Of a stretch of 64,000 nt of DNA, positions 15,607-55,773 are shown one piece after another. The notes under the pieces were generated by a model. That model had not been told where the DNA came from. It saw only the letters and a list, made by a program, of their open reading frames with translations, and searched no databases. Each line of letters begins with the position of its first letter. The stretch's first letter is position 1. A program made the translations under genes and the position numbers. Source of the DNA: Prionailurus viverrinus (lineage: Eukaryota); contig NC_062576.1 of NCBI RefSeq assembly GCF_022837055.1, forward strand, positions 18,222,144 through 18,286,143, given 5' to 3'.

Positions 15607-15661
15607 ATGTTGACCATTACTCTTCTTGCCCTTGTCTGCGCATCAGCCTCAGCCAATGTCA
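15607..15661 (+). CDS. ZG16: ZG16 copy 1 coding exon 1: signal peptide MLTITLLALVCASASANV plus 1 nt; donor GTAAGT at 15662
   Basis: ATG at 15607 preceded by acceptor ...CCTCCAG at 15599. Translation matches the zymogen granule protein 16 N-terminus (human MLTVALLALLCASASGNA from memory). Phase-1 donor. Confidence 0.85.
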
Positions 15662-15845
15662 GTAAGTGAGAGGCCAGAAGACCAGTATTAGCGTCATGGG
15701 AAGACAGCTTCCTGCTCTGCCAGTGGCCAAGGCTCACAGGGGCTGGCTTGGGGTGGTGGGCATCGAGTTGTGGGAGGTGTAGGAGTGGTGAGGAGGGACT
15801 GGAGCTCTTGAGATCTCTCCTTCTGACGCCTACTGTCCCCTCCAG

Positions 15846-15978
15846 TTCAGGCTAGGTCCTCCTCCTACAATGGAGAGTATGGAGGCGGTGGAGGTGAGCG
15901 ATTCTCCCATTCTGGTTACCAGCTGGAGGGTCCCATCACTGCCATCCGTATCCGGGTCAACAGATACTACATCGTAGG
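15846..15978 (+). CDS. ZG16: ZG16 copy 1 coding exon 2: (I)QARSSSYNGEYGGGGGERFSHSGYQLEGPITAIRIRVNRYYIV(G)
   Basis: Acceptor CCCCTCCAG|TTCAGGCT and donor GTAGG|GTAAGA. The reading frame continues from exon 1. The GG-loop poly-Gly motif of jacalin-type lectins is present. Confidence 0.85.
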
Positions 15979-16650
15979 GTAAGATTCTTTGTGTGTCTGT
16001 GGTTTGGGGATCCTCTCCGATCTTACCACACTGGAAAGTTCTCAGTCACTTTGGGTCACATCTGTTTCAGTCAACAAGTCCCAGGGATAACTTGGGATGT
16101 GAAAGGTATCAGGAGGCTGGGGTCTGAGGCCGGTGCTGCTACAGCCCTACAGCCCCCAGCGTGCACGTCTTGGGCAAATCTGTAGCACAGCCACTGAGGC
16201 GCTGGGAAGCTGGCTACTTTGGCCCCACCTGAGGTGTAGGTCCCCTTGGGCATCCTCCATCTTGGATGACGCCTCTCCCCAAAACATGTATCCTTCTGAT
16301 CCTGGAGCAACAGAGTCTCTTCCCTGATGAAAGCCATCCAGAAAGGCCCATCTGCTTCTTTCACGTAGGGGTTGGGGGCACAGCAGGAACCTAGATTTCA
16401 AACTGAAGATCTACCACTGTCTGAGGGGCTCCGGCCAAGTTACTTTTCCTCTCTGAGCCTATCTGTCGGCAAAAGGAGTTGAAGTTTACAGTGGGACATC
16501 AAGGGCTCCCTCATCCCTCACACACCTTGGGACTGGCAGGGGACCTGTCATCTCTGCCACCAGTTTGCAGGTCTCTCGGCTTGTAGGCCAAGAGGTCCTG
16601 AATTCCAGTCACCCTGCTCAGTCTTCCCTCCCTCACCACCCCCCACCCAG

Positions 16651-16966
16651 CCTCCAGGTGCGCTATGGCAAGGTGTGGAGCGACTATGTGGGTGGCACCC
16701 AGGGAGACCTGGAGGAGATTTTCCTGCACCCTGGGGAGTCAGTGATCCAGGTGTCTGGCAAGTACAAGTACTACCTGAGGAAGCTCGTCTTCGTGACTGA
16801 CAAGGGCCGGTACCTGCCTTTTGGGAAAGACACAGGCACGAGTTTCAATGCTGTCCCCTTGTACCCCAACACCGTGCTACGCTTCATCAGCGGCCGATCT
16901 GGTGCCCTCATCAATGCCATCGGCCTGCACTGGGATGTCTATCCCAGCGACTGTGGCAGTTGCTGA
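16651..16966 (+). CDS. ZG16: ZG16 copy 1 coding exon 3: jacalin-like domain body ending ...HWDVYPSDCGSC, stop TGA at 16964-16966
   Basis: Acceptor CCACCCAG|CCTCCAGGTG. Translation LQVRYGKVWSDYVGGTQGDLEEIFLHPGESVIQVSGKYKYYLRKLVFVTDKGRYLPFGKDTGTSFNAVPLYPNTVLRFISGRSGALINAIGLHWDVYPSDCGSC is essentially collinear with human ZG16 (167 aa, from memory). The ORF track frame 16565..16966 covers it. Confidence 0.9.
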
Positions 16967-24810: not shown

Positions 24811-24824
<14 letters not shown>

Positions 24825-24843: not shown

Positions 24844-24937
24844 CTTCGTTTTTAATTTTTTAAGTTTAATATATTTCAATTTTAGTATTTTTAAAATTTT
24901 ATTTTTTTACCTCATTCATTCTTTTTCTCCCTTCAAA

Positions 24938-25820: not shown

Positions 25821-25929
25821 GAGAAAAGATGAAACAAAAAACACAAATAAATAAATAAAGGCCAAAAGCAACAAGGACTAGAAAGGACCAGAGAACACCA
25901 GCAGACACTCCAACTCCACAAACAACATA

Positions 25930-29650: not shown

Positions 29651-31442
29651 GGAACTAGAGGGTTATTATGCTAAGCGAAATTAGTCAGAGAAAGACAAAT
29701 ATCATATGACTTCACTCATATGAGGACTTTAAGACCCAGAACAGATGAACATAAGGGAAGGGAAGCAAAAATAACATAAGAACAGGTAGGGGAACAAAAC
29801 ATGAGACTCTTAAATATGGAGAACAGAGGGTTACTGGAAGGGTGGTGGGAGGGGACATGGGCTAAATGGGTAAGGGTCATTAAGGTATCTGCTCCTGAAA
29901 TCTTCGGATGTACATTAAAAACAACAAAACAAAACAAAAACTTCCTTTCTCTGTGTGTTTCATTTGGATAATTTCTGTGGCTATGCCTTCAGCTTCACTA
30001 ATCTTTTCTTCTGCGATGTCTCATCTACTGTTGATTCCATTCAGTGTAGTTTTCATCTCTGACACTGTAATTTTCTGTATTTTTTTAAGTAATCTCGACA
30101 CCCAACGTGGGGCTCAAACTCACAACCCCAAGAGCAAGAGTTGTGTGCTCTACAGACTGAGCCAGCCAAGTGTCCTTGACATTGGAATTTTCGTTTCTTT
30201 CTTATATGTCCATGTCTCTATTTAACTTTTTAAAAACATATGGAATATCATTAGAGTAGCTGTTTAATGTCCTTTTCTGCTCCCTCTAGCGTTTGTATAA
30301 GTGCTGGGTTGGTTTCAATTGATTGATGATTCTCCTCATTCTGCGTCATGCATAATCTGTGGCTGATTGGCCAGCGTTGTGAGTTTTACCTTGCCGAGTG
30401 CCAGATACTTTGGTAATCTGTGTGATTTGTTAGGCAGGTGCATAGTAGTGCTCAGCTTGGGGCTGATTATTCCCCACTACTAAGTGAAACCCTTCCTGAA
30501 CACTCTGCCCTCCACTTTGTCACATTGCTAGTCGGGCTGGTGCGAAAAGGCCCTGAGCACAGCTGCCTGCAGAGATGGCTCTCGCCCTGGTGTCCTCAAA
30601 GGACAAATCTCACTTGTTTTCCTTTCTCTCTGGGATTGCGAGGCATGTTACTGCCTTTCATTGCTTGGTGTCCACTGTTTTGAAAACCGTTGTATCGTGT
30701 GTTTTGTCTGGTTTTGTTGCAGTGGTGGTGGCAGTTTCTGGCGGGAAGGTAAAACTGGTCCCTGTGACTCCACCTTGAGGAGAAGCAGGGATCTTGGTGT
30801 GTGTGTTTCTAAGAGCTCTCAGGTGATCCAGGGTGCAGCCAGGTGAGAGCCACTTTACAGACCTGTTTTCTCTGCTTGAAATGTTTTTTTCTCAGTCAAA
30901 TAGAATCTTTGATTATCTCCTCTCCTCCATTTTCTTGGTGCTCTCTGGAACTTCTGTTAGATTAATATGGAATACATTGGCCCTCCATCTCTTAACTTTT
31001 CTTTCATACTTTCCATTTCGTTGTCATTTTGTTCTACATCCTGAGAGATTTTTAAACTTTTCGTCTCATACCTTCCTTTGATTAGCTTTTTCTTTTTTCT
31101 TTTTTAACATAAGTAGCCTTCATGCCAAGGATGGAGCCCAACGCGGAGCTTGACCTCACACAGGTGACACTTGGCGATGTTTGGAGACATCTTTGGTTGT
31201 AACATCTATGGGGTTAGTGAATAGAGACCAGAGAGGCTGTGAAATATCCTACAGCATGCAGGAAAGTCTCCCCCACCAAGAATTACCTGGGTCAGATGTC
31301 AATACTGTGAAGGTGAGGAAACCCTAGTTTAAGACCATTTGGGAGCAGGCTGCCACAACTCACACCACCAAAGGCCAAGGCAAGGAGGGATCCTCCATAC
31401 CCACTTCAGGAGACTTCCTGGGCACGTATTCAAGTTTGTTTA

Positions 31443-32268: not shown

Positions 32269-32299
32269 TTAGTCATTCTTCAAAAAAAAAAAACCACTC

Positions 32300-32965
32300 A
32301 GGGCATCTGGCTGGCCTAGTCGGTAGAGCCTGTGACTCTTATTCTCAGGGTTGTGAGTTCAAGCCTCATGCTGGGTGTGGAACCTACTAAAATAAAATTT
32401 TAATTTAAAATTTAAACAAAACACTAGAAGGGTAAACATTATTAAAACCAGGAAGATCTGACATGATCTAGAATCAAAATGAGATGTTTTGATTCTTAAC
32501 TATCTCTTATCACTTAAAAAAATAGCTTAACATTTTTGGAGGGTGCCTGGGTGGCTCAGTTGGTTAGGCATCCAACTCTTGATTTTGGCTCAGGTCATGA
32601 TCTCATGGTTCATGAACCCCGTATTGGGCTTCATGACAACAACATGGAGCCTGCTTGGGATGCCTTCCTTCACTTCTGCTTAGATCGTCCCTGTCCAATC
32701 TAGCCACTTGTATACCTTAACACTTCTCTGCAGCCAAAGCTCACAGGCCCCATCAGAAGATAAAGGGACCTGGGGTACCTGGGTGGCTTAGTCGCTTGAG
32801 CGTCTGACTTTGGCTCAGGTCGTGATCTCACACTTCGTGAGTTTGAGCCCCGCATCAGGCTCCTCACTGACAGTGTGAAGACTGCTTGGAATTCTCTCTC
32901 TCTGCCCCTCCCCACTTGTTTTCCCTCTCTCTCTCTCTCTCAAAATAAATAAATAAACTTAAAAA
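32300..32965 (+). mobile_element. Three SINEs (about 32300-32410 short type, 32540-32690, 32770-32965), paralogous to 4697-5396
   Basis: Canonical heads. The copies are collinear with copy A SINEs. Confidence 0.85.
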
Positions 32966-34154
32966 ACGAATAAGTAAAAAAAGAAGGTAAGGGGACCAGA
33001 ACGATCTCAAGGAAGCTAAGTATGTGTAGGGGCAACTTCCCACATGGCCACTTGTGAATGGCACATGGGTCCCTTTTCTCTGCCATGATGCCACTTGGAA
33101 AGTCACTGAGGTCCATTCTATACTGAGGCTTTCTGTAGCCAGCATCTGACCCCACACCCTGTGATACATGGCTGCCCACCAGATGTTCCCAGGAGAAAGG
33201 AGGGCCCAAGGGGCTGCCACATCTTTTCCCAATTCCTACACGAAATGGGCCTGCCCGTACGAAGGTTCTTAGTCTGATTCTGGTGGAGATGGGTGGTCTC
33301 AAGAAAATGTTAAGCTTTATCTCCTCCACAACATACCTGGCCAGGATGGAGCCTCTCCTTAGACGATGAGAAACAGAAGAACTTCCTCGGAGCTCGCCTT
33401 GCATCAGGCAGTGTTCTGGAACTTTACTTCTGTTAAGTACATCACAACCACAGCAACCTGAGGAGGTAGGCAAAATTATTGCCTTTTTGTTTGTGTATGT
33501 GTGTGTTTTCAGATGAGAACAGAAGCAGAGAGAAGTGATATAACTTTCCCCAGGGACCCAGCTTCTGAGTCCTGCCCCGTCTGTGCGCCTCTCAAACACT
33601 CCAACCTGCGTCTGTCTTCCTGTGCTTGTAGAACGTGCCAAGTGCAAGAGCAGGTGACTGTTGGAGCCTCAGTCATATATGAAGGAAATGAAATCAGCTC
33701 ATACTTTCAGCTGAATTGTTCCTGACACAAAGCAAGAATGACCGTGTCCTGGTGGAATGACCTCACCTCATTCCCATTTGATACTGTTATATCAATATTT
33801 GATGTTATATTGTGTTATGTTCTGGAGAATGCTCTTTGTGAGGAGGAAAACAAATAGAGGAAACAAAGGAAAAAATAAACAAAGCAAGTTTTGCAGTTGC
33901 ATTACAATTGATCAAGCCTTGCGGTAAGAGATGTGGAGGCTGAAGGCAAAAATGATAGAGGTTAGGGGCACCTGGCTGGCTCAGTCTGTACAGCATGTGA
34001 CTCTGATCTCCGGGTTGTGAGGTTGAGCCCCATGTAGGATTAGAGATTACTTAACATTCAGATCTCAAAAAAAACAACAACCACACACAAAGGCTAAAAA
34101 AAAGCTACCATGTAATCATAGCTCAATAAACAGAAATTAAAACCAGGTTCCCAA

Positions 34155-34314
34155 GGCACCCAGGTGGCTCAGTTGGTTAAGCAGCTGACTTCGGCTCAGG
34201 TAATGATCTCACAGTTCATGGGTTCAAGCTCCACATTGGGCTCTGTGCTCACAGCTCAGAGCCTGGAGCGTGCTTTGGATTCTGTGGAACCCTCTCTCTC
34301 TGCCCCTCCTCCAC

Positions 34315-34359
<45 letters not shown>

Positions 34360-34925
34360 AATAAAGAAATAAACATTAAAAAAATTCTTGTGTCAAGTTG
34401 TATGATGCATATACAAAGCTCTCCAGGATCTGAACTAAGCTAAACCATAAAAATAAAGCTAACTGTAAATGAGAAAGAAAGCCCATGCTCCCTCATCAAC
34501 CTTATCTGAAAGAAATGAAAAAGAAAGACCATATTTTTTGAGAATTGAAGAGAGAAAAAAATAAATGTTAACTCAGTATTATATGTGCCAGAGCTGTGTC
34601 AGGGGCTTGACACAAATTGGTTAGACTCATTATCTCCTATCACAGATGAACAAACTGAAGTTCGAGGATCATGGAGGCAGGGCATGAACCAAGCTTTACG
34701 ACATGTCTCTTGCTGGGGGTTCCTGGGTGGCTCAGTCAGTTAAGCGTCCGACTTTGGCTCAGGTCATGACCTGGTGGTCAGTGAGTTAGAGCCCTACGTC
34801 GGGCTCTGTGCTGACTGCTCAGAGCCTGGAGCCTGCTTTGGATTCTCTCTCTCTCTGCCCCACCCCGTCCCTGCTCACCCTCTGTCTCTCTCTCTCAAAA
34901 ATGAATAAACATTAAAAAAAATTTA
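34155..34925 (+). mobile_element. Two CAN-SINEs (about 34155-34385 with a (CT)n tail; about 34720-34925), paralogous to 11290-12095
   Basis: CCAGGTGGCTCAGTTGGTTAAGCAGCTGACTTCGGCTCAGG... and GGGGTTCCTGGGTGGCTCAGTCAGTTAAGCGTCCGACTTTGGCTCAGG... Confidence 0.85.
34319..34356. repeat. (CT)n microsatellite in a SINE tail
   Basis: TCTCTCTCTCTCTCTCTCTCTCTCTCTCTCTCTCTCTC. Confidence 0.95.
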
Positions 34926-35729
34926 AAGACATGTCTCTTACTAAGGCACCATTCTATGCATGAATTCTTGGCAGGTTGCTATAGGTTTCTGACTTTAAGA
35001 AATGATTAACACATTTCGCAATATATACATATGTCGAATCAGCATGTTGTAATCCCTGAAACTAATATAATGTTACGTGTCAATTCCATGTCAAAAAATA
35101 AAATAAAATAAAAAGATTATCAACATATTCTTCCATACTTGAGTCTGGGTCTCAGGCGCTGCTCTAATTATTACCCTAAAGGTGTCCCAACCCATTTCTG
35201 GCCTGGCAGTTTTGAACTGTGTTGACATATAAAAAATCGTACCCTTTGATAGAGGTAGAGTTTATTTTTCTCAAGGATTTTTTTTTTAAAGAGCAGTTCA
35301 CAATAGAAAAGAACATTTTATATTGTGAGCCAGTTACGCGTAGGATAGAGTATTTGACTGAAACGCTACCTCAGGAAATAGTATTTAGCCTTGTTACATG
35401 CGATGCTCTTACTTTCTCTATTTCATTCTAAAATATGTTGGTTTGGGGGCACCTGGGTGGCTCAGGTGGGAAAGCATGAGATTCTTGTTGTAGGGCTTGT
35501 GGGTTCGAGCCCCACGTTGGGTAGAGAGCTTACTAAAGAAAATAAACTTAAAAAAATACGTTGTTTTTGAGCTGTTAAAGTGATTTCATGGTCCACTAGT
35601 GAGTTAAGACCCACAATCTGAAGAACTCTGTCCTTGAGGATTTTGGTTGATCTCGAGACCATTTGCTTCTCATGTTCCAAATGCAGAAATACAGGCTCTA
35701 AGAAATAGTGACTTTTTATTTTTTAGCGC

Positions 35730-35935
35730 TTATTTATGTATTTATGAGAGTTTGGGAGAGAGAGCCCACACAAGTGAGGGAGGGGCAGAGAAAGAGAGGG
35801 AGACACAGAATCCGAAGCAGGCTCCAGGCTCCGATCTGTCAGCACAGAGCCCGACATGGGGCTCGAACTGTGAGATTATGGCCTGAATCGAAAACAGATG
35901 CTTAACCAACCAAGCCACCCAGGCACCCTAGTGAC
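35730..35935 (-). mobile_element. CAN-SINE, antisense; left flank of the 3.7 kb copy-B-specific block
   Basis: ...GAATCCGAAGCAGGCTCCAGGCTCCGATCTGTCAGCACAGAGCCCGACATGGGGCTCGAACTGTGAG...CAAGCCACCCAGGCACCC. Confidence 0.85.
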
Positions 35936-36944
35936 TTTTTAAAATTCACATGGCTAATGAGTGTTGGAATGGAGGACCTTAACCCACAATTCTGTCTTTA
36001 GGTACAGTATGCTACCGAACAGGGTTTCACCAGAAGGTTCAGAAATAAGAAACAAGAAAACCCAAATTCAAGCCTGCCAGAAGAGAGACACTGGCCTGAA
36101 AAGACAAAGGAGGAGTATTTAATGGAATTCTCACCGCAGACAAGGCATGTGACGGTCATTTATGGGGCACCTGTAATGTGCCAGATGGGAAGCAGGAGCC
36201 TGGAATTCAGAGCTGGACAAGACAGGCCTTCCGCCTTAGAATGGGCTTGGGGTTTGGTGGAGAAGGCTTCTGTGTACACAGATAAATTACAGCGCAGGGT
36301 AATCAGAGCTGAGCTGGGGAGGTAGCAAACACAGTTGGAGGCCAGAAAAAGGAATTCTGTCTGAAGTGGAGGGGCTGGAGGGAGACCCCTATGATAGAAG
36401 CCCTAGGGAGGAGTGCAGGGGGTGGTGCGTGCAGGGGGTAGTGGGGGGAGGGGTAGGGGCTGAATGTCTTAAGGGTAGAAGATGGGCAGGTGAGCAGGAC
36501 AGGAGAACATTTAGGCAGCCAGAGTGGCAGGAGCAAACAGCTGGCTAGTGTAGGGACTGGCATGTGGGTTACGAGGGACAGGAGGCAAGGTGTGGTGTCC
36601 CGATCAGATGGGGGCCCCCAAATGTGCAGTGACCACCTGGTGGAGGCTGGGGGCTTGGGCCGTGAAAGAATTCACCTGAGGCAGAACAAAGGAGATAGAA
36701 GCTTATGGAATACACAGCAAGGTTGCAGAGGAGAGGCTGTCTGAGAAGAGGCAGTGTGGGGGATGGGGGACTATTTTGGAAGGGGGAAGGTGAGGACTTA
36801 TGGGGATATATAGAATTCTCCCCTTTGGTGGTGACTGTGCCTGGTTGTAAGCAGCCCATTGGTCAGTTAGAGCCTATAACTGATGCATGGAGGTGCCCCC
36901 GACCCATGGGCCTGTCTGTATTCAGCCAGGGGGTCGCCGTGGCC

Positions 36945-37650
36945 CTTTTCTTTTTTTTTTTTTTAAAGAGTTTTTTACTTCATTATTTTTTTAATTTTAT
37001 GTTCTTAAATTTACATCCAAATTATTTAGCCTATGGTGCAACAATGATTTCAGGAGTAGATTCCTTAGTGCCCCTTACCCATGTAGCCCATCCCCCCTCC
37101 CACACTCCCACCAGTAACCCTCTGTTTGTTCTCCATTTTAAAGTCTCTTCTGTTTTGTCCGCCTCCCTGTTTTTATATTATTTTTGCTTCCCTTCCCTTG
37201 TGTTCATCTGTTTTGTATTTTAATATCCTCGTATGAGCGAAGTCATATGATTTTTGTCTTTCTCTAATTTCGCTTAGCATAATACCCTCCAGTTCCATCC
37301 ACGTAGCTGCAAATGGCAAGATTTCATTCTTTTTTGATTGCCGAGTGATACTCCGTTGTATATATATATACACCACATCTTTATCCATTCATCCATCAAT
37401 GGACATTTGGGCTCTTTCCATACTTTGGCTATTGTCGATGGTGCTGCTATAAACATGGGGCTGCAAGTGTCCCTTCGAAACAGCACATGAAACAGTGGAT
37501 AAACACCTAGTAGTGCAGTTGCTGGGTCGTAGGGTACTTCTATTTTTAATTTTTTGAGGAGCCTCCATACTTTTTCCGGAGTGGCTACACCAGCTTGCAT
37601 CCCATCGTTGTGGCCCTTTTCTACCTCCTGTCACCCAAGCCTGTTTGCCT
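36945..37650 (-). mobile_element. 5'-truncated L1 3'-end fragment (ORF2 C-terminus plus 3'UTR), antisense
   Basis: Poly-T at 36950-36965. Minus-strand ORF 37389..37634 translates to ...CSHSGKSMEAPQKIKNRSTLRPSNCTTRCLS...STIDNSQSMERAQMSIDG, which parallels the + strand L1 C-terminus at 29355-29648. Confidence 0.8.
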
Positions 37651-38144
37651 ACAAGTGGCCTCTACAGCAGGGAGTGGAGGGACCCTCTTTGCAGCTTAGT
37701 GAGGTCACTTCTCTCTCAAGACTTTACTTTCTTCACGGGAACCATGAAGGGTGAACAGAAAAGCACTGTTCACATTTGCTTTTGTGGTAAAACCCTTTGT
37801 TCAAATGAAACCACCATCTACCCAAGGCGTAAATGAGGAGACAGAGAATATTTTTTTCTTAACAGGAAAGAGATCTGCTATCATTTGGAAATACATTTTG
37901 AAAAATCAGTGATGGGAGTCAAGGGGCAGATTCTCCCCCCTGGGGTGTGAATTTGCACCAGGATTTAAGAGGCTTTGTCTGAGAGAGGAAATAGTGCTCT
38001 GAGCAGGGGCCCCTTGAGACAAGGGTTGGGGGGTATGAGAGCTCACACTGTTCCTGCCTCCTGAGGTGGGCTCCCCCTCCCCCTTCCCCTCCACACACCC
38101 TCATTCCCCACCCTGTCCATTCTCCACTTTTAAGAGTGGAACGA

Positions 38145-38369
38145 GGGGCGCCTGGGTAGCGCAGTCGGTTAAGCATCCGACTTCAGCCAGGTCACGATCT
38201 CGCGGTCCGTGAGTTCGAGCCCCGCGTCGGGCTCTGGGCTGATGGCTCAGAGCCTGGAGCCTGTTTCCGATTCTGTGTCTCCCTCTCTCTGCCCCTCCCC
38301 CGTTCATGCTCTGTCTCTCTCTGTCTCAAAAATAAATAAACGTTAAAAAAAATAAATAAAAAAAAAAAA
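38145..38369 (+). mobile_element. Young CAN-SINE (CpG-intact), flanked by an AAGAGTGGA direct repeat; near-identical to the copies at 32056 and 60631
   Basis: GGGGCGCCTGGGTAGCGCAGTCGGTTAAGCATCCGACTTCAGCCAGGTCACGATCTCGCGGTCCGTGAGTTCGAGCCCCGCGTCGGGCTCTGGGCTGATGGCTCAGAGCCTGGAGCCTGTTTCCGATTCTG... Confidence 0.85.
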
Positions 38370-39424
38370 GAGTGGAGAAACCACTCGGTGGCTTCCCTCA
38401 CCTTCAGGAGGAATCCAAACTCCTGACCACAGCCTCCCAGGCCCTGTACTACCTGCCCGGCGGCTGCTGCCCACACCTCCCCTCCCGCTGGCAGCCACAC
38501 TTCCCAGCAGCCACCCTGCCCTCCCGCACACTGTTCCGCACACTTCCTGCTCAGGGTTTGCGTACCGTTCCCTCACCAGGTCCAGTCTTCTCCCAAACGT
38601 CTGTAGTCTCTCCATCACTTTGGTGAGGTCTTCACAAATGTTACCCGTGGAGAGGGGGGCCTCCCAGGCAGAGAGACAGCTTTCCCAGCCCTTCTCCTGG
38701 TTCACTCTGCCTCATTTCCTCCTGGCCTGGCCCATGGGAACGAGTTGTTCAATTGTCCGACCCCCCACCCTGCAGTGAAAGCTCCAGCACTACGATTTGA
38801 CCCTTCCTCTGTGACTGTCTGTCCAGCATCTAGGACGGTTCCTCCAACATACAGATGCTGCATAAATGTGCTGAGTGAGTCGCTTTGCCAAGGGGCAGGG
38901 AAGACAGCAAGAGAATGAGTGTCAGCTGCCCTGCCATAGCAGAAAGCTTGGGGAGGTTTTGGACTTCGCAGCCTTGGGACTGGGCAGGGATGACCTTCAC
39001 TGCCTGTAGGACTGGGGAAGGTCGGCCCCCAGGGGACACATGGGCAAAATGTGACAAGTTCAAATGGGAGCAATGGAACTGGACCTGATGGCATACCAAC
39101 ATTAGCTGCACAGTGGTCTAGCTGGTCTCTGGGACCCACAGGCGATGAGCCCTGAGACCCCTGCCACTGGAATAAAGTCCTCTCTTTACACTCTGGAGAG
39201 GAGATGGAGGGCCTGCTGGGGGGAACCAGGGACCAGTCTATGGGCATCGGGGAGACTCTGACTCTCTGCATAGGTGGGGCCAGTGCATCAGAGTGAACCT
39301 ATGACAAGTGTGATGGTCTCCCCCTGAGGGTCCCAGATGTGTCATGTATGGAAATATGAGGGTATTTTCCTAAGGCATTCACTGCAGACCTCTCTGGGCT
39401 ACCATATTTTTTTTCTTAATCTTT

Positions 39425-39610
39425 TATTTATGTTTAGAGAGAGAGAGAGAGAGAGAGAGAGTGAGTGGGGAAGGGGCGGGGGGTGGAAACAGAATCTGAA
39501 GTAGGCTCCAGGCTCTGAGCCATCAGCAGAGCCCGATGCAGCTCTCGAACCCACGAGTGGTGAGATCACTATTGGTCCAATTCTTAACCAACTCAGTCAC
39601 CTGGATGCCC
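39425..39610 (-). mobile_element. CAN-SINE, antisense; right flank of the copy-B-specific block and start of the ZG16 duplicon
   Basis: (GA)n...GAATCTGAAGTAGGCTCCAGGCTCTGAGCCATCAGCAGAGCCCGATGCAGCTCTCGAACCCACGAGTGGTGAGATCAC...CTGGATGCCCC. Confidence 0.85.
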
Positions 39611-41182
39611 CTGAGCTGCCATCTTTGATATCCAGTGTTTGGTTCCATCCTGTGGGATATACTCCTCATAAGGAAGAGGAAAGACAGACAATAGTGAGAG
39701 AAGACAGAGGAAAGATTTAGAGAGAGAGCTTGGAGGAGGAGAAGAGACAAAGAGAAGAGGCAGAAGGAAAAAGGGATGGAGACAGTGAATACAAAGAACC
39801 CTTAGAGCAGGAGATGATGGGGAAAGATCAAGACAAACGGAAAGAGAGAAGTAGGAAAGAAAGAAAACCAGAGAGGACAAGAGAGACAAAACAAAACAGA
39901 TGAATGAGGAAGTTATCTCACCAGGACATGCTTGTTTTGAACTTGAAGCAGAGATCAGACAATGCAACCCTGGCTGCCCTCTTTGCTCTCGGAATCTCCA
40001 GACCAAGAGCCCTGTCCTATTTCTGGCTCCTTAGGTTGGGGTTCCCTGGCTTTCCTGGGAGGAGTCCTCAGTCCTAGATGGTCTATGAGGGGTGGATATT
40101 CTGTTTGTCCAGCTACTAGTCATTAATCACCAAGGCTAATGACTCCAGCTCTTCCCTGGGCTCCATCCATCTCTCTGCTTGGGAGGGCCCGCTGACTCAG
40201 AGGGTCAAAGAGCCAGTCCTAAAGGGGTCAGGAAGTAGGACTCAGGAGTCCGTCTAGAGACTCCGGTGGAACAGAAGGGCCTCGGAAGAGAAGAAATCTA
40301 TGACACGAATCTAAGGCCTATGGGAAGGAGCTGTTGCCCCGTGTGGGCTTTATCCTCCAGAAGATTCAGTCATGGCTCCCAGGAGCCCCGAGGGCCTTGA
40401 GACCAGAATTTCCCCCAAGGGAGGAACCATGTACCGTTACTTCCTCAGCGTCTCACATGCCTATTGGCCTGACTGCCTGTCTCCCAGGCGGGAGATTGAC
40501 AGGTGTTCGTTGTCCACCAGCAGCAACACGTTACCCTTCTCAGAAAAGTTTTGTAAACAGTCTGGCAGATTGAGGATGGATAGATGGGGGGGAGGGGGGG
40601 GCAGAAAAAGGCAAGTACAGCAAAGTATTAACCATGGTAGAATCTATGTGGTGTGTATATGAGTGTTCACTGTATAATTCTTTAAATATTTCCTATGTTT
40701 GAATTTGTTTTTTTCATATAAAATAACCGGGATGAGAAGGAAAAAAATTGTCTGGAAAATAGTAGACACTCCTAAGTACAGAGTGTTGGGTGTATCATCC
40801 CTTCCCAGAAGAATCTAGATTTCAAATGCAGGACAGTGAGGACAAGGTTTCTCCTGAAAGATGACAGATTGCAGGTAGGAGCACCTGCAGAACACCCAAA
40901 TAGGGGGGTGACAACCTTAGACTACATCCAGAAGCACTTAGCTACTTTGCCCACCAAAAGCTGCTGGCCCTTGGGTTGGTGACCTTTTCTCAAGTTTATT
41001 CTGCCCATCCTGAGATCTGGGCCTTGGCCCAGATTGGACCCCACCCTGCCACATGAAACTCTTGGGGGGAGAGCAGGATATGGTATTCCAGACCTTGCCT
41101 GACCACTGACCCTAGAGGCTGAGCATGTTTGCTCAGGTGGTGAGGCCACACGATAAAGAGAAGGCAGAGGGCTTGGACCTGG

Positions 41183-41190
41183 TATAAAAG
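41183..41190 (+). promoter_or_regulatory. TATA box (TATAAAAG) of ZG16 copy 2
   Basis: Same TATAAAAG...CCAG|GTGAGGGG arrangement as copy 1; the non-coding first exon is about 41214-41234. Confidence 0.55.
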
Positions 41191-42163
41191 ACCTGGAAGT
41201 TTCCAGGTGATTACTTTGCACCTGGAACTGCCAGGTGAGGGGTGACAGAGGCCTGGGCTAAGGGGTGAAAGGGATGATTGGATTTGAGTTTCGGGGGAAT
41301 TCAAGCAGCGGTGGACAGCAGCCTGCCTGGAGTGAGCGGCAGGGGAGACCTGTGTGGCAGGTACCTGGGGCATCTGAGGGAGGTGCAAAGTATCTGGGTC
41401 TCAGAGGAAGGACGGGAGACACCTGGGATGCTCGGGGTATCGATACAGCCAGATTTGTGTTAGTGGAGAAAGAATTATGACAAATAGACCAGGCATCTGG
41501 AATCTGGTATCTTGAGCTGTGGTCCAAACTCGTTGTGCAGTTTCTCAACTGTTCCGATGCTGGTATTGGCACAGTCTCGTCTATAATCACCCTCACTGCC
41601 TGGGTGACACAGAGACGCACCCCTAAAATGCTCCTTTCCTTCTGATTTGAGACCCAGCTAAAGCTAGGAATTTAAACTCTGCCCCAGAGGTCCCCCAAGC
41701 CAGCCCCATGTGTCACAGGCAGGTTGCAGTTAGGTTTTGCTCAGAATCCTGGTTTGGTAAACTCAACCATCTCTATGGTTTGGAGATGGCCTCCACTTCT
41801 TTGAAACTCTTTTCCTGCTTTGTGCCAGGAGGGACCAGGACTTACATGGGTTGGTCCAGACAGAGGCTTAGGACTGACCTTCTGACTCAGGATGGTCAAC
41901 AAGGGGGTCAACAAGGGGGTCGACTACCTCGAGACCAGGGAGGACAGAGGGGTTAAGGACACCGTACCTGCCAGGAGCAGGACTAGAGACTAGGGGCAAT
42001 TCTTTCTGAGCCCAAGACTGGGTCAATTAGGTCTCAGTTGAGGGACAAAGAGGGCCGAGTCTCAATTGGAGATCTAACCCAGGGAAGCCTGGGTAAATGA
42101 AGTCCAAAGGAAACAGGGTGAATGAACCTTGACGTTCTCCTTTCTTTCCCTTCCAGCCCCAGA

Positions 42164-42218
42164 ATGTTGACCATTGCTCTTCTTGCCCTTGTCTGTGCAT
42201 CAGCCTCAGCCAATGCCA
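42164..42218 (+). CDS. ZG16 paralogue (copy 2) coding exon 1: MLTIALLALVCASASANA plus 1 nt; donor GTAAGT at 42219
   Basis: ATG at 42164 preceded by acceptor CCCTTCCAG at 42148-42156. It is 2 aa different from copy 1. Confidence 0.8.
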
Positions 42219-42402
42219 GTAAGTGAGAGGCCAGGAGCCCAGTATTAATGTCATGGGAAGACAGCTTCCTGCTCTGCCGGTGGCCAAGGCTTGCAGGGGC
42301 TGGCTTGGGGTGGTGGGCGTCGAGTTGTGGGAGGTGTAGGAGTGGTGAGGAGGGACTGGAGCTCTTGAGCTCTCTCCTTCTGACGCCTACTGTCCCCTCC
42401 AG

Positions 42403-42535
42403 TTCAGGCTAGGTCCTCCTCCTACAATGGAGAGTATGGAGGCGATGGAGGTGAGCAATTCTCCCATTCTGGTTACCAGCTGGAGGGCCCCATCACTGCC
42501 ATCCGGGTCCGCATCGACAACAACTACATCATAGG
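42403..42535 (+). CDS. ZG16 paralogue coding exon 2: (I)QARSSSYNGEYGGDGGEQFSHSGYQLEGPITAIRVRIDNNYII(G)
   Basis: Same splice signals as copy 1. It is 133 nt with about 12 nt differences, 8 of them non-synonymous. These include G to D inside the Gly-rich GG loop and RVNRYY to RIDNNY. Confidence 0.8.
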
Positions 42536-43207
42536 GTAAGATTCTTTGTGTGTCTGTGGTTTGGGGGTCATCTCCGATCCTACCACACTGGAAAGTTCTC
42601 AGTCACTTTGGGTCACATCTGTTTCAGTCAACAAGTCCCAGGGACAACTTGGGATGTGAAAGGTATCAGGAGGCTGGGGTCTGAGGCCGGTGCTGCTACA
42701 GCCCTACAGTCCCCAGCGTGCACGTCTTGGGCAAATCTGTAGCACAGCCACTGAGGCGCTGGGAAGCTGGCTACTTTGGCCCCACCTGAGGTGTAGGTCC
42801 CCTCGGGCATCCTCCATCTTGGCTGACACCTCTCCCCAAAACATGTATCCTTCTGATCCTGGGGCAACAGAGTCTCTTCCCTCATGAAAGCCATCCAGAA
42901 AGGCCCATCTGCTTCTTCCACGTAGGGGTTGGGGGCACAACCGGAACCTAGATTTCAAAGTGAAGCTCTACCACTGTCTGGGGGGCTCCGGCCAAGTTAC
43001 TTTTCCTCTCTGAGCCTATCTGTTGGCAAAAGGAGTTGAAGTTCACAGTGGGACCTCAAGGGCTCCCTCATCCCTCACACACCTTGGGACTGGCAGGGGA
43101 CCTGTCATCTCTGCCACCAGTTTGCAGGTCTCTCGGCTTGTAGGCCAAGAGGTCCTGAATTCCAGTCACCCTGCTCAGTCTTCCCTCCCTCACCAGCCCC
43201 CACCCAG

Positions 43208-43511
43208 CCTCCAGGTGCGCTATGGCAAGGTATGGAGCGACTATGTGGGTGGCACCCAGGGAGACCTGGAGGAGATTTTCCTGCACCCCGGGGAGTCAGT
43301 GATCCAGGTGTCTGGCAAGTACGACTACTACCTGAGGAAGCTCGTCTTCGTGACTGACAAGGGCCGGTACCTGCCTTTTGGGACAGACATAGGCAGGAGT
43401 TTCAGTGCTGTCCCCTTGTACCACAACACCGTACTACGATTCATTAGTGGTCGCGCTGGCACCCTCATCAATGCCATAAGCCTGCACTGGGACTTATACC
43501 GCAGGTATTGA
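43208..43511 (+). CDS. ZG16 paralogue coding exon 3, ending ...HWDLYRRY with stop TGA at 43509-43511; four codons shorter than copy 1 and lacking both C-terminal Cys
   Basis: ORF track 43023..43511. Translation LQVRYGKVWSDYVGGTQGDLEEIFLHPGESVIQVSGKYDYYLRKLVFVTDKGRYLPFGTDIGRSFSAVPLYHNTVLRFISGRAGTLINAISLHWDLYRRY. The splice acceptor is intact. The premature stop arises by substitution (GACTGTGGC to TATTGAACC), not a frameshift. Confidence 0.8.
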
Positions 43512-43577
43512 ACCAGTTGCTGAACCGCTGCAGCCGGCTGTGAGAACCGCCTTACCACTACCCCACCTACAGGGTTC

Positions 43578-43583
43578 AATAAA
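43578..43583 (+). terminator. AATAAA polyadenylation signal of ZG16 copy 2
   Basis: GGGTTCAATAAAAATAATAATAAAAGG is conserved with copy 1. Confidence 0.55.
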
Positions 43584-44728
43584 AATAATAATAAAAGGAC
43601 ATAGCTGACGCTGGAGTGTATGTGGGTGTGTGCAGCTGGGACCCGCCTCCTGACTCTGGCTGTGGATGTGTGAATGTCCTTTCTGGCTATCTATAGATGT
43701 CTTTCTGGTGAAGAGTGGGAGGGAGAGAGAGAGGTGTAAAGTCTTGGGCTTTTCTTCCTGGTTTATGGAGAAGAGATAAGATTCTGGATTGCTCCAACTC
43801 TTTTTTTCAAGGATAGCTCCTGAGACTGTTTACCCAAACTGGAGTTAAGCCTGAGGGTGCAGCCTCGCTTCCTCCCCAAACCCCAGATGTCCCAGTCTCT
43901 AGGCCTTGTCTCCCCTTGAGATAGTGTTTCCCCACCAAAAGGCTGTCACCTGGCTCTCTTGGCATTAACCACTTGCTGTCTCTGGGTGGCCTGGGCCATT
44001 TTCTTTCATGCTTTCCCAGAATCCACCTGTCTCCCGAAGCTTGGCCTAAGTTTTTGTTGAGAACTCTGTCTCTTACTCCAGCCTAGTCCCTCCCCACCTT
44101 TGCCCATAAGCACTGATGCTCCCTGATTAGCTTAGCTCGCTCAGAATTGGGCTTCTTTCCCTAGGAAGCTGCCACCTCCTCAACAGCTTCTATTCTGCCA
44201 ATTCCATCCTCAAAAAAAGGGCATTCCAAGAGGGATAGATGTCCATGGTGGGTTTCCATGAACGTCGGGGGTTGGTTACCATTCAGGGGAAGCAACAGAC
44301 TGGCTGGATAGATTCAGCAAGGATACAGAGTCACTTTGGAAATAATTCTTGGGACTCTAGTGCCCAGTCCTAAAATTACCACAGTGTTTTGTTTTTGCCT
44401 TTTGGTGGTGGTGGTTGGGGATGAGGGAAGTCACTCATTGCTCCCCAAAGACTTATTCACATTATGGTGAATGCCAGAGTCACATTTCTTCCCAATTAGA
44501 CAAAGATAACAATTATGTACATGTAGTTTTAGAAAGGAATATTAACATTACAGAAACAAACTCATGCCTAGATACTTTTTAGAACAATTCCTTTATTTCT
44601 CTCAAAGAAACATGGGATGGAGTATCATGTCAGAGTAATTTGTTTTGAGATATAAAGTACATAAAATTCACCCATTTATTTAGTTATTTAAGTTTATTTG
44701 AGAGAGAGCATGAGCGGCACAGGGATAG

Positions 44729-44749
44729 AGAGAGGGAGGGAGGGAGAGA

Positions 44750-44797
<48 letters not shown>

Positions 44798-44806
44798 CCC
44801 AAGCAG
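44729..44806. repeat. (GGGAGA)n/(GA)n expansion within an antisense SINE; not expanded in the paralogous SINE at about 18230
   Basis: GAGAGAGGGAGGGAGGGAGAGAGAGGGAGAGAGAGAGAGAGAG...(GA)n, about 75 bp, versus GGGGCAAAGAGAAGAGAGACAGAGACAGAGAGAATCC in copy A. Confidence 0.9.
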
Positions 44807-47800
44807 CCTCCACACTCAGTGCGGAGCACAAAGCGGGGCTCGATCTCACAAAGTGTGAGATCATAACCTCAGCTGAAATCCAGAGTCAGCCAGCCATCCG
44901 GGTGCCCCAATATTTGACCTTTTAAAGCGTGCCATTTCCGTCGTTTTTAGTATTCACGGATTGTGCAACCATGACCACTAATGCCAGAATTTCGTCATCA
45001 GCTCAGAAAGAAATCCCATCCCCATTAAGCAGTCGCTCCCCATTCCTCTCCCCCAGCCCCTCGTAACCACCCATCTACTTTCTGTCTCTATGGATTTCCC
45101 TGTTCCAGGCATTTCATGTAGATGGAATCGTCCAGTAGTGTGGTCTTTTGTGTCTGGCTTCTCCCATTTAGCGTATTTTCAAGGTTCATCCACGTGGTAG
45201 CACGTGTCAGGACTTCGTTCCCTTGTGCGGCTGAATCTGACACATCAGATACCTGGTCAACTTCAGGATCAGCTTTGCACCAGCGGGTCTCACCCTCGGC
45301 CAGTGAAGTCACTGGCACCTGACAGGCAGCTGCCGCAGAAGAGGACGAAGTCATGGGATTCCCGGCTTTTGTGTAGTTGACATATTAGGCTTTTGTAAAA
45401 GATTTTATGTAAAGAAAATTTTCCTTTCCTTATAAAGTTCTAAAACTACTAAATTGAGCTAATCATACGTTTATCAAATGCTCTCTGCTAGGTGCTTGGG
45501 AATACAACGACCACTGAAGATTTCTTTTCCTCTAGTCAAAGGGAAGACTTGGTGAAGGAAGGGGTGTGTGTGTGTGTGAGCGTATGCATGTGCATGTGTG
45601 ATAGGGGCACAGTACTGGGCTATGCAGTATCAGCCTATGCAGAAATATGAACACATTAAAATGACAATTGCACAGTTAAAATGCAAAGTTCTACTGGGTA
45701 AAGATGAAGCCTCATGGAATGGCAGGGACCATGCATGTCATGCTAAACTGTTGAAACTTTATTTTATGGGCTACAAGAAGCCAATGAACCAAGATTTTGC
45801 TCAGGGGATTGGTAAGATTTATACGAAAATCATCTTTCCTTGTATAAGTGGGGAAAATGGATTGAAGGTGAAGCAGGATGAGATAATAGTTAAGAGACTA
45901 GGTCTAGATCAGAAATGATGGATGTCTGAACAAAGGCAGTGATGTGAGGGAAAAAAGAGAGGGAGGAATTTGAGAGATTCGAGGGGGAGGGGAGACTTAG
46001 AAGAACTTGATAAAAGAACCCATGAAGGTGAGTCAAAGAGGAGAGTCTAGAAGAACTATCATGTCTAGTATGGGCAACTGGGAAGAGAGAGATTCTTTCT
46101 AAGATGAGGACTACAGAAGAAGAAATTAGCTTTTGGACCTGTTGCATTTTTAAATAATATTTATTTTGAGAGGGAGGAAGAGAGAGAAAGAGAGCAAGAG
46201 AGTGGAGTAGCAGGGAAGTGAGAGAGAGAGAATCCCAAGCAGGGTCCGTGCCTCTAGTGCAGAGCTTTATGCAAGGCTCGATCTCACAAACCTGAGATCA
46301 TGACCCGAGCCGAAATCAAGAGTCAGACGCTTAACTGACTGAGCCAGACAGCTGCCCCAAGGACCTGTTGCATTTTGACATATCTGTGGCACATCCTGAT
46401 GGAGACCCAACATTACACAGAGGACTATTTAGCAATAAAGGCTCGGATACAGCTTTCAGGTAAGCCTTAGATTCAGGAGTCACAAGCACAGAGACAATGG
46501 ACTTCCAGTGATGGATATGTGGAAGAAGTCACGTAGGAAAACTGTGGGCATATAAAATGAGAAGAAGGCTGGCGTCAGAGGATTGGAGAATACCAAAGAG
46601 GAATTGGTTAGAGAAAAGAGACGGGAGGGGCCGGGGAGGGAACGCACTCAGGGGCAAGAGAGAAATTTCATGGAGCTGTTACTGCCATCTAAGCAAGAAA
46701 AAGAACGACTTGAGATTCTTTGCCTTTGGCAATCAGAAGGTCACGAATAATCCCGAAAGAGCTTCGGGGGATTGGGGGAAGCTGAAACCAGGCTGCAGTT
46801 GGCTAAGGAATGAATGGGAAATGAGGAAATACAGGCAGCAAGACTTGAATATTCCAAGATGTCTGGCTCCAGAAAGCCAGAAAATAGGCTAGTCACAGTT
46901 ATGGGAGATGTAAGGAAAGAGAGATTGGGTTTTTTTCCTAGACAGGGGAGACGTGAGCATGTTTATATGACAAAGAAGGAGTCAGAGGGAGGAAGAGGCT
47001 GAGGATTCAGGAAAGAGGAGGGAACTGATGGAACGAGGTCTCGCAGGAGATTGGGGAGGATGTGTTACGTAGCTGTTGGGGCAGGAAACCTTAAGAAAGA
47101 AGAAAATGAAGATGAGTGAAGGTACAGGTTAGTTTGTAGAGGGAGTGGGTATGGAGCAAACCTTGAGGGAATTAATACCCAACCTTGACTTGTTCGGTTG
47201 CATAAGTAAACCTGCCTGTTGTATGAGTCACATTCTTCCAGAGGAAAACCAGCAGGAGACATACGTACATATATACATAAAGAGTTTTTTTTTTTATGTT
47301 TTTATTTATTTAAATGCTTTATTTTTGTGAGAGAAGGAGAAAGAGCACAAGAGGAGGAGGGGCAGAGAGAGAGAGAGAGAGAGAGGAAGACAGAATCCGA
47401 AGCAGGCTCCAGCTGTCAGCACAGAGCCCACTCAGGGCTTGAACTTGTGAACCGCAACATCATGACGTGAGCTGAAGTCGGACGCTTAACCAACTGAGCC
47501 ACCCAGGTTCCCCTTTAAGATTTTATTTTTATTTATTTATTTACATTTTTAACACTTATTTATTTTGAAAGGGGTGGGGCAGAAAGAGGGAGACAGAATC
47601 CATATCAGGCTGCAGGCTCTGAGCTGTCAGCACAGAGCGGGACTTGGGGCTTGAACTCATGAACCGCGAGATCGTGACCTGAGCAGAAGTTGTACACTTA
47701 GCCACTGAGCCACCCAGGTGCCCTTAAGATTTTATTTTTAAGTCATCTCTACCCCCAGTGTGGAGCTTGAACTCACCACCCCAAGATCAAGAGTTGCCTG

Positions 47801-54635: not shown

Positions 54636-55640
54636 TGAGGCCTCATTTTTTTTTTTTAACAATGTAAAGGATTCCAATGCCAAAAAATTTGAGAACCGCT
54701 GGTCTAACACTTGTTTTGTTTAATAGTCTAGACATGTCTGACCCAGGGCTCTATCAGGAGCTCAGAGATGGGACATTCATCCCTGGTTAAGCTTCCAGAA
54801 GGGACAGGGACTTCACAGATGGCTGAACCCCTAGGACACTGGGACCGTGGATGAAGCTAAGTAACAGACTGAACATGCCTTTAAGGCTCACTCCGATATA
54901 TTGAGTTACAAAGCAAGGAACATCCGAGACCAGCCCCCCTCCGCTGGTCATAAGAGGACACATGTCACCTGGTATCTGCATGGTGATGTGGGCTTAGCAA
55001 GAGGGGGAGTGTAACGCGACTGTCTACAAACCAGACAGCGCAGGTCAGACCTACAGAAGTGACCAGACGGTAAAGTACCGTGAACTGGCACTGAGTTCCA
55101 GTCCGAGAACCCACAAACCCACGAACCCACGGAGCGCGAAACAAGCTGAAGAAACTGCTGAAAGTGAAACTCGCTTTGAATAACCCGTTTACACGCACGT
55201 CTCCCTTTTTCATATAATCACCTCTTCTGCCACTAAAACAGCTAAAATTGTATTCAATTCAGGGAAATCTGGGAGTAAAATCGATTAAGAAGTCTTCGAT
55301 CACTCGCATGATTAGTACCAAAATTCGTGGTTGAGGGGGAAACACGAGGCGAAAAGTCTGGACTTACGCAAATCTACGACTCGAAATCCGAAAGCCAGAA
55401 GGTACAGAGAGTCCAGTGCCCAGTGGCGCTCAGCGGCTCCTCCGACCGCCACCGCCGCCCAAGCCTCGGGCGCCAGAGTTCAAGCCACGACGAGCGCCGG
55501 GGCGTCCACGGCCGGGTGGCCATCCTGCGCGCATGCGTCCTCCGCCAGGGGAAACTTTTTCTTGCAGGACCCTGAGGCGAGCCCTAGAGGGCGGGATGGT
55601 TGCGAACCAAAGCAGGGGCTTCCGGTAGCGAGTAGCCGTG

Positions 55641-55685
55641 ATTGGTGGAGGCCAGGACGGGGGGCGGGGCACCGGGAAATTCGAA
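55641..55685 (+). promoter_or_regulatory. KIF22: Inverted CCAAT box (ATTGG, 55641-55645), Sp1 GC box and CHR-like TTCGAA (55680-55685) in the KIF22 core promoter
   Basis: GTGATTGGTGG ... GGGGCGGGG ... GGGAAATTCGAATGG lie 30-75 bp upstream of the ATG. CCAAT boxes followed by a CHR (TTYGAA) are the signature of late cell-cycle (DREAM/MMB-FOXM1) promoters, of which KIF22 is a known member. An NRF1-like GCGCATGCG motif is at 55527-55536. Confidence 0.45.
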
Positions 55686-55715
55686 TGGGAGAGGCGGGCC
55701 AACGGAGGGAGCGGA

Positions 55716-55773
55716 ATGGACGCGGGGGGTACCGCGCAGCTGAGGCGACGCGAGATGGCGGCGGCGATCTCAG
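55716..55773 (+). CDS. KIF22: KIF22 (kinesin family member 22, Kid) coding exon 1: [19 protein letters not shown] plus 1 nt; donor GTACGC at 55774
   Basis: ATG in a good Kozak context (GGAATGG) inside a CpG island. The sequence matches the human KIF22 N-terminus ([24 protein letters not shown] from memory). The frame continues into exon 2 at 62311. Confidence 0.8.

Follow-up and report, generated by a model that had tools for sequence, protein, structure and literature searches.

A 64,000-nt stretch of the genome of the fishing cat, Prionailurus viverrinus (hereafter the window, to which all positions refer), carries two tandem copies of ZG16, the gene for a lectin of gut and pancreas that holds bacteria away from the epithelium of the colon and takes part in the packing of zymogen granules. 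Here, we analyzed the second of them, copy 2, at 42164-43511. With a probability that we put at about 0.78, copy 2 is an old tandem paralogue whose differences from the canonical gene, copy 1, are erased by gene conversion except in two coding islands and at codon 102. The copy 2 lineage, which bears the RefSeq name ZG16-like, is called type C below, and canonical ZG16 (copy 1) is called type A.

Both copies are already annotated RefSeq models of P. viverrinus, copy 1 being an exact match to XP_047694817.1 (ZG16) and copy 2 to XP_047695187.1 (ZG16-like). The preliminary description of this DNA had presented copy 2 as a ZG16 paralogue, and it was confirmed to be a real and intact one: the gene runs from the ATG at 42164 to the TGA at 43509-43511, has three coding exons with GT/AG at every splice site, and encodes a product of 163 residues. 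The Pfam family PF01419 (Jacalin) matched copy 2 with 69.4 bits and copy 1 with 75.3 bits, against a cut-off of 22. Copy 1 lies in a tandem duplicon about 26.5 kb upstream, and no further ZG16-like sequence was found in the window by tblastn. The two genes and their duplicon are as follows.

42164..42218, plus strand: coding exon 1 of copy 2, with the ATG at 42164, the signal peptide MLTIALLALVCASASA... and a GT donor after 42218; 3/55 nt differ from copy 1.
42403..42535, plus strand: coding exon 2 of copy 2, 133 nt from codon 19 base 2 to codon 63 base 2, with an AG acceptor and a GT donor; it encodes the GG loop and the beta3-beta4 loop, and 12/133 nt differ from copy 1, 9 of these 12 within the last 35 nt.
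42536..43207, plus strand: intron 2 of copy 2, 20/672 nt different from copy 1 and homogenized with it through gene conversion.
43208..43511, plus strand: coding exon 3 of copy 2, in which the TGA at 43509-43511 is codon 164 (TGT in copy 1).
15607..16966, plus strand: copy 1 (type A, canonical ZG16), the conversion partner, with exons at 15607-15661, 15846-15978 and 16651-16966, encoding 167 residues with a CGSC tail.
32283..47542, unstranded: duplicon with copy 2; its partner is 4678-21018, broken by insertions, with 89-93% identity by self-BLAST.

The differences between the copies that had been counted by hand in the preliminary description were reproduced, with 9/184 in intron 1 and 29/304 in exon 3 besides the values listed above for exon 2 and intron 2, and all six peptide changes that it named are present. 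That the exons differ more than the introns is also real and beyond chance, but the excess is not exon-wide. It resides in two patches, namely codons 53-62 (9/35 nt) and the region from about codon 121 to the stop (43380-43511, 25/132 nt). Only 4 sites depart from copy 1 in the first 172 nt of exon 3, and intron 2 ends in a 140-bp mismatch-free run just before exon 3. When 6.3 kb of aligned duplicon were scanned with permutations, the most divergent 130-bp window proved to be the 3′ end of exon 3, with 28 mismatches against a mean null maximum of 14.4 (P<0.0002), and the end of exon 2 was among the top 35-bp windows. Since the duplicon flanks are 5-9% diverged in a profile of 500-bp windows, the outliers are the introns, which are unusually similar, and not the exons. 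The differences that were retained map as follows.

42504..42533, plus strand: divergence island 1, codons 53-62, RIRVNRYYIV in copy 1 and RVRIDNNYII in copy 2.
43323..43325, plus strand: codon 102 of the beta7-beta8 recognition loop, where AAG (Lys) has become GAC (Asp), a difference retained in isolation.
43383..43523, plus strand: divergence island 2, comprising codons 122-163, the stop and a 12-nt relic of the former CXXC coding sequence.

Synonymous sites are raised in the patches as much as replacement sites. Between copies 1 and 2, synonymous divergence (dS, Nei-Gojobori) amounts to 0.16 for the gene as a whole and rises to 0.49 in the patches; intron divergence is 0.03-0.05, and the pairwise ratio of replacement to synonymous divergence (dN/dS) is 0.44. 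Type A and type C differ by 26-29% in island 1 and by 17-19% in island 2 in three felids, while orthologues differ by 0-3% in island 1; the island dS between the two types (42504-42533 and 43383-43508) is 0.36-0.49. The contrast between exons and introns is a mosaic, with divergence erased in some parts and kept in others.

Homologue searches and cluster look-ups led to the identification of the 163-residue type C form in at least 11 felids, with RVRIDNNYII, KYDYY, FGTDIGRSFS and a short cysteine-free tail. Related 163-residue forms are found in the striped and spotted hyenas, and a short-tailed form of 152 residues in the meerkat. The genomic loci compared were type C from Leopardus geoffroyi, lion, clouded leopard, hyena and meerkat, type A from five felids, and ZG16 from bears, sea lion and rhino; hyena and meerkat are thus represented by type C sequences, without canonical ones. 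Codon alignments revealed a set of derived states common to type C of felids, hyena and meerkat. Among them are CGG>CGC at codon 55, which is synonymous, N57D, changes at codons 58 and 59, the loss of Lys102 to a non-basic residue (Asp in felids and meerkat, Asn in hyena), K122T, the synonymous change GGC>GGT at codon 144, and TGT>TGA at codon 164, which takes away the CXXC tail. Codon 162 has changed from AGC to AGG in felid and hyena type C and is AAG in the meerkat. Codon 165, now untranslated after the stop, reads ACC instead of GGC in type C, with ATC in the meerkat. Because convergence at synonymous and post-stop sites is implausible, a single origin of type C before the split of Felidae, Hyaenidae and Herpestidae is indicated, and judged by these shared states the paralogue predates the divergence of cats, hyenas and mongooses, a few tens of millions of years ago.

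The preliminary description regarded copy 1 as ancestral and copy 2 as derived. Copy 2 does have 17-18 residues found in it alone, as against 3 in copy 1, but at codons 140, 146 and 160 copy 2 has kept the state of bear, sea lion and rhino, and it is copy 1 that is derived there. The polarity of codon 145 is ambiguous, since the rhino agrees with copy 1. Within type C, R37Q, G154S and F159L are found in P. viverrinus only. In one striped hyena model, Hyaena hyaena XP_039103881.1, exon 2 is of the copy 1 type (IRIRVNRYYIV) and exon 3 of type C; the model would be either an isoform that reads through from one tandem copy to the next or a third gene that has undergone conversion. One bear protein is a chimera of the same kind. 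The type C model of the cheetah, Acinonyx jubatus, has only 139 residues and shows copy 1 states at residues 33 and 102, possibly through conversion and truncation in that lineage.

Gene conversion was traced with informative sites in quartets of cat A, cat C, hyena C and bear. In the introns, 39 sites group cat A with cat C and 0 group cat C with hyena C, while in the islands the counts are 0 and 13. Intron 2 gives 31:0 for the grouping of the two cat copies against hyena, and the flanks 27-35 versus 5-8 for the same grouping. The sites that join cat C to hyena type C stand at 6:0 in island 1, among them the synonymous CGG>CGC at codon 55, and at 7-8:0 in island 2. In non-coding DNA, cat A and cat C lie at equal distances from hyena type C (14.7 vs 14.7%, 15.2 vs 14.7%), and they are only 3-7% apart from each other in introns and flanks. 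Within felids, species-wise and paralogue-wise sites in intron 2 number 8:2, 6:3 and 12:7, with 0 cross patterns, whereas the island sites sort 30:1 by paralogue (9:0 in island 1 and 21-23:0-1 in island 2). The A and C copies of L. geoffroyi are all but identical over exon 1 and intron 1 (1/239 nt different), although orthologues differ there by 3-4%. As introns sort by species within felids, conversion must be ongoing; on these patterns, interlocus gene conversion between the copies is old and has continued after the felid radiation. The preliminary description had offered homogenization of the introns by gene conversion as its alternative explanation, and for the introns it was correct. Two tracts illustrate the process.

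43341..43358, plus strand: short conversion tract from copy 1 to copy 2 in P. viverrinus, codons 108-113, restoring CTC, TTC and Asp113.
46542..47466, unstranded: mismatch-free tract against 20017-20942 on the copy 1 side, with 0 mismatches in 924 aligned bp and one 1-bp indel.

In the short tract, three linked markers are A-like in P. viverrinus type C, while the type C states are kept in the type C copies of Leopardus, Panthera, Neofelis and hyena; D113 is likewise present in P. iriomotensis type C. A further micro-tract was seen in Neofelis, where codons 135-140 of type C show the copy 1 states. The 924-bp tract is longer than the 99th percentile for longest runs in the null distribution (195 bp). 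It has the look of a very recent conversion, with smoothing in the assembly as a less likely cause. Another tract, of about 470 bp and nearly identical, was found at 44978-45445; both lie downstream of the genes, and their surroundings are 5-9% diverged.

The islands are paralogue-wise in all species compared and fall at functional residues, and island 1, only 30 bp long with converted sequence on both sides, was unconverted in 10/10 full-length felid type C sequences read. The islands may be maintained by selection against convertants.

Rates of protein evolution were estimated with Goldman-Yang codon likelihood (F3x4) on 13 sequences and 163 codons. A one-ratio model gave a dN/dS of 0.28; with separate classes, the estimates were 0.15 for the background, 0.08 for the felid copy 1 clade and 0.58 for the type C lineage, the last being made up of 1.08 on the type C stem and 0.54 in the type C crown. 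The difference between type C and background is well supported (2dlnL, twice the difference in log-likelihood, 26.6; p=2.5e-7), and the contrast holds across the concerted-evolution tree and the island-only and non-island partitions, where type C ranges from 0.44 to 0.66. Between orthologous felid sequences, dN/dS is 0.26-0.32 for type C and 0.09-0.18 for copy 1. Tajima relative-rate tests confirmed the excess of residues unique to copy 2 given above (p=0.002-0.003 with a bear or rhino outgroup). The stem value is not different from 1 (p=0.92), and the whole type C lineage is below 1 (p=0.007), also at non-island codons (p=0.014). With a branch-site fit that is approximate, no signal was detected on the type C stem; clade-wide, the same approximate fit gave 2dlnL=5.45, p about 0.01 and omega2=2.0 at 19% of sites, a kind of result that conversion can inflate. 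Little weight is placed on it, because several of the sites flagged (113 and 135) are toggled by conversion.

By these estimates, constraint is about four times weaker on copy 2 than on copy 1. As judged from its coding sequence, copy 2 is plainly no pseudogene, and the open reading frame, the splice sites and the identical stop are kept in at least 13 species of three families. Positive selection on copy 2 is only weakly indicated. The fast evolution of copy 2 claimed in the preliminary description was thus borne out in rate (0.58 against 0.15, with the relative-rate excess) and not in timing, the states concerned being common to felids, hyena and meerkat. Its proposal of diversifying selection was not supported, with no dN/dS significantly above 1 on stem or clade and a branch-site signal that is clade-wide only. 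The branch and branch-site tests that it called for, run here with our own codon likelihood, found type C to be faster and left the stem without a branch-site signal.

Copy 2 is predicted to be a secreted jacalin-type lectin with a beta-prism I fold. An AlphaFold2 model reached a predicted local distance difference test score (pLDDT) of 89.3, and Foldseek superposed it on 3APA, 7O3I and 7O88 the root-mean-square deviation (rmsd) being 0.6-0.9 A and the target-normalized template modelling score (TM-score) 0.97-0.99. In human ZG16p, the mannose pocket is formed by Gly35, Gly147, Ser148, Leu149 and Asp151, with a water-mediated contact of Tyr104; Lys102, Lys106 and Lys122 form a basic phosphate-binding patch, and K33, K36, R37, R55 and R58 (rat numbering) bind heparin (PMC4059138). 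The ligand face was delimited from strand alternation and published contact residues and consists here of the alternate loops in the modelled beta-prism, with 2 residues added or removed at their ends. By this definition, 13/18 lectin-domain replacements fall on the ligand face, which makes up 33% of the domain (binomial p=8e-4), although ligand-face positions are also more variable among orthologues (26/46 vs 32/93 variable). Several of the positions replaced are near-invariant elsewhere, namely R37 (34/35), K122 (31/35), N129 (32/35) and P135 (35/35). The changes N57D, R58N, K102D and K122T are general features of type C, G33D is a change of the feline subfamily, and R37Q is seen in P. viverrinus alone.

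From the ligand face, copy 2 has lost the basic residues R58, K102 and K122, and it has gained the acidic residues D33, D57 and D102. Net charge and isoelectric point did not shift consistently among type C proteins, since Arg is added by the new tail; the change in charge is local to the ligand face. The direct mannose contacts are nearly the same in both copies: only residue 148 differs (Ala to Thr), and the sugar contacts G35 and Y104 are kept in both, next to the change of G33 to D in copy 2. The preliminary description placed the changes in the sugar-binding loops, which is right for the ligand face as a whole; the FGKDTGTSFN segment, however, is the beta9-beta10 loop with Lys122 and not a canonical sugar loop. 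It also took GRSGALIN for a GXXXD-type segment, in which, however, the aspartate is already Asn in both copies and the Gly147...Asp151 segment reads G-T-L-I-N in copy 2 and G-A-L-I-N in copy 1.

This Asn151, at 43470-43472 in copy 2 and 16913-16915 in copy 1, is the natural equivalent of D151N, a mutation that abolishes mannose binding in human ZG16p (PMC4059138) and enhances its heparin binding. Asn151 is present in 16/40 aligned ZG16 sequences, including those of bats, rhino and other carnivore ZG16; the carnivore exceptions are meerkat type C (Asp) and the panda ZG16-like protein (His). The tail of ZG16 with its CXXC motif is flexible and redox-active (PMC9291870). Copy 1 keeps it as CGSC, while copy 2, with TGA at codon 164, ends in DLYRRY, with P161R. 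From these replacements, type C would bind anionic ligands, i.e., glycosaminoglycans and phosphomannans, more weakly, and it would be without tail-mediated redox or partner interactions.

The history that accommodates these results best begins with a tandem duplication of ZG16 before cats, hyenas and mongooses diverged, giving types A and C. Type C lost the redox-active CXXC tail through the shared TGT>TGA, and its ligand face was remodelled. Conversion with copy 1 has repeatedly overwritten the introns, the promoter-proximal region and the conserved parts of the exons, which gives these regions their young look, while the two islands and codon 102 retain the old divergence, synonymous and replacement alike. 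The islands would persist as convertants restoring copy 1 residues are selected against, and type C would be a second gut lectin with a different ligand and localization profile.

Several points weigh against this history. The duplication is dated by shared derived states and not by a full two-paralogue tree. The island dS of 0.36-0.49 is higher than the dS between felid C and hyena C (0.16) and close to that between cat and bear (0.40), so that the split may be much older than Feliformia, or mutation in the islands may be unusual. Reversions to copy 1 states, at single sites or in short tracts, are tolerated in some species, as seen for T124 and P135 in Neofelis and for G33 and K102 in the cheetah, and the persistence of the islands could come from heterology blocking heteroduplex formation, and not from selection. 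With Asn151 in both copies, the glycan specificity of the canonical pocket may not distinguish them. Finally, the codon models are our own implementation, and the branch-site model was fit with branch lengths fixed in proportion and is approximate.

Were copy 2 instead a recent duplicate, with introns showing its true young age and exons changed fast under positive or diversifying selection on glycan specificity, then the placement of 13/18 replacements on the ligand face, the relative-rate excess of copy 2 (17-18 vs 3), the clade-wide branch-site class (omega2 about 2, 19% of sites, p about 0.01) and the changes specific to P. viverrinus (R37Q, G154S and F159L) would all be expected. We nevertheless consider this highly improbable. 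Selection at the protein level cannot yield a patch dS of 0.36-0.49, about ten times the intron divergence, and the defining changes recur in every felid, hyena and meerkat, synonymous and post-stop sites included. The island quartets stand at 13:0 for old paralogy, felid introns sort by species, the pairwise dN/dS is 0.44, and the stem estimate is not above 1. A recent duplication was rejected on the shared derived states and the island dS. The import of the islands into copy 2 by conversion from a third, more divergent jacalin-type donor would explain an island dS above expectation for a split at the felid/hyaenid node, and some felids do have a third copy, type B; it is the most improbable explanation of all, as type B has copy 1 states in both islands, tblastn found no other ZG16-like sequence in the window, and the presence of the island states in hyena and meerkat would push the import back before the feliform radiation. 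The ancestral states at codons 140, 146 and 160, shared with bear, sea lion and rhino, fit retention. A donor paralogue was rejected on the window search and on the copy 1-like islands of type B.

It is also conceivable, though unlikely, that constraint was merely relaxed, copy 2 being a redundant, drifting duplicate in which dense mismatches block conversion and the replacements sit in loops where constraint is low. A dN/dS of 0.58 in the type C lineage and about 1 on its stem, the greater variability of ligand-face positions among orthologues (26/46 vs 32/93), the weak branch-site evidence, the tolerated short conversions into the islands in Neofelis and P. viverrinus, and the truncated cheetah model (139 residues) are all in keeping with this. 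Drift alone is harder to reconcile with an open reading frame, splice sites and an identical stop maintained in at least 13 species of three families, with a dN/dS below 1 (p=0.007; 0.014 at non-island codons), or with hits at the near-invariant positions R37 (34/35), K122 (31/35), N129 (32/35) and P135 (35/35). The same holds for the 30-bp island 1, which stands unconverted amid converted sequence in the 10 full-length felid type C sequences read, and for the alteration of the same loops and of the CXXC tail in independent duplicates of bears, rabbit and rodents. We thus favor an old paralogue with islands spared by conversion.

ZG16-like paralogues of Ursidae, rabbit and muroid rodents, duplicates in tandem or peculiar to their lineage, carry replacements in loops 56-60, 102-103, 122-126 and 146-151, as in type C. 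Their CXXC motif is lost or altered by routes that differ from the feliform TGA: a 1-nt frameshift in ursids, a replaced tail in rabbit, and Cys>His or Gln in rodents. The ZG16-like proteins of bears and panda have 162 residues, with replacements at 56, 59, 62, 102/103, 122, 124, 129 and 147/148; in the giant panda, the ZG16-like gene (10001-13087 of the fetched locus) lies about 140 bp from a second jacalin gene model with an assembly gap. The ursid copy is without the feliform synapomorphies at codons 55, 57, 144, 164 and 165, and quartets for a common origin of the ursid and feliform copies are ambiguous (5-6 vs 4-5 sites), the shared sites all being replacements. Taken together, the sequences suggest that altered loops and loss of CXXC are a recurrent fate of ZG16 duplicates. 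A wider proposition, which we hold only tentatively and think rather less probable than its opposite, is that independent duplicates in Feliformia, Ursidae, rabbit and muroid rodents each rebuild the same loops, strip the basic glycosaminoglycan/phosphate patch and lose CXXC, being held apart against conversion for tens of millions of years in feliforms, or that the feliform and ursid copies are one Carnivora-wide duplicate largely masked by conversion; either way, they would form a functionally distinct and recurrent class of mammalian gut lectins.

Compared with human and rat ZG16 (PDB 3APA, 3VY7 and 7O3I), copy 2 has about 80% identity, the Pfam Jacalin domain and a predicted fold that superposes within 0.6-0.9 A; the signal peptide, Gly35, Tyr104 and Leu149 are shared, as is a locus that adjoins a DUF4689 (C16orf54-like) gene. 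Unlike these proteins, copy 2 is without the CXXC tail (stop at codon 164), has P161R, has lost basic residues through R58N, K102D, K122T and R37Q, and has gained D33, D57 and D102; both cat copies have Asn151 in place of the mannose-binding Asp.

Concerted paralogues with selected islands of divergence are textbook cases at RHD/RHCE, the red/green opsins and the beta-like globins. As in these, non-coding DNA is closer between the cat paralogues than between orthologues, sites sort by species, identity tracts are over-long, and short coding islands with high dS sort by paralogue. Unlike them, the present case concerns a gut lectin in Feliformia, and the selection on the islands is one that we infer. 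In the literature searched, nothing relevant was found on how ZG16 was duplicated or has evolved in carnivores or in cats. Concerted evolution with divergence islands is a well-known mechanism, and the gene is annotated; it is the ZG16/Feliformia case that was not found described in that literature.

Several other features of the locus were recorded. Two AATAAA polyadenylation signals, kept in both copies, were read directly from the sequence.

43578..43595, plus strand: two AATAAA polyadenylation signals in an overlapping region.

Upstream of the genes, a complete open reading frame for DUF4689 (C16orf54-like) was identified at 1546-2220 on the minus strand (E=4e-122), and some 1.1 kb of sequence close to it has a duplicate upstream of copy 2 (4678-5759 and 32283-33341). 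In other felid annotations, the DUF4689 gene model has copy 1 inside its intron. The conserved neighbours of ZG16 are C16orf54 and KIF22; in the bear, a kinesin gene lies about 10 kb downstream of ZG16, and KIF22 was not identified within the window. The GC-rich segment at 55300-56250, with long overlapping open reading frames on both strands, is possibly the CpG-island promoter of a downstream kinesin gene (KIF22 in the bear locus). Between the duplicons, 25166-29063 is an AT-skewed stretch of low GC with several LINE-1-like open reading frame fragments, and an inverted repeat of 81% pairs 29348-29902 with 37046-37604.

The leopard cat, P. bengalensis (CM028194.1:18663669-18685025), has a third copy, type B, encoding 167 residues. 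Its upstream flank is 99% identical to the region upstream of copy 2 (positions compared, 32389-40683 and 14583-26969), and the type B gene with its downstream sequence resembles copy 1 (96.7%), so that it looks like an unequal-crossover hybrid. With only two copies in the fishing-cat window, either copy number varies among felids or the assembly has collapsed.

For tandem paralogues in general, exons that diverge more than introns should be read first as a sign of introns erased by conversion, with raised exon dS as the tell-tale, and selection tests on converting tandem pairs are easily misled. For the animals themselves, if the reading given here is true, carnivores, and apparently other mammals with ZG16-like genes, would deploy two ZG16 lectins with different ligands or localization.

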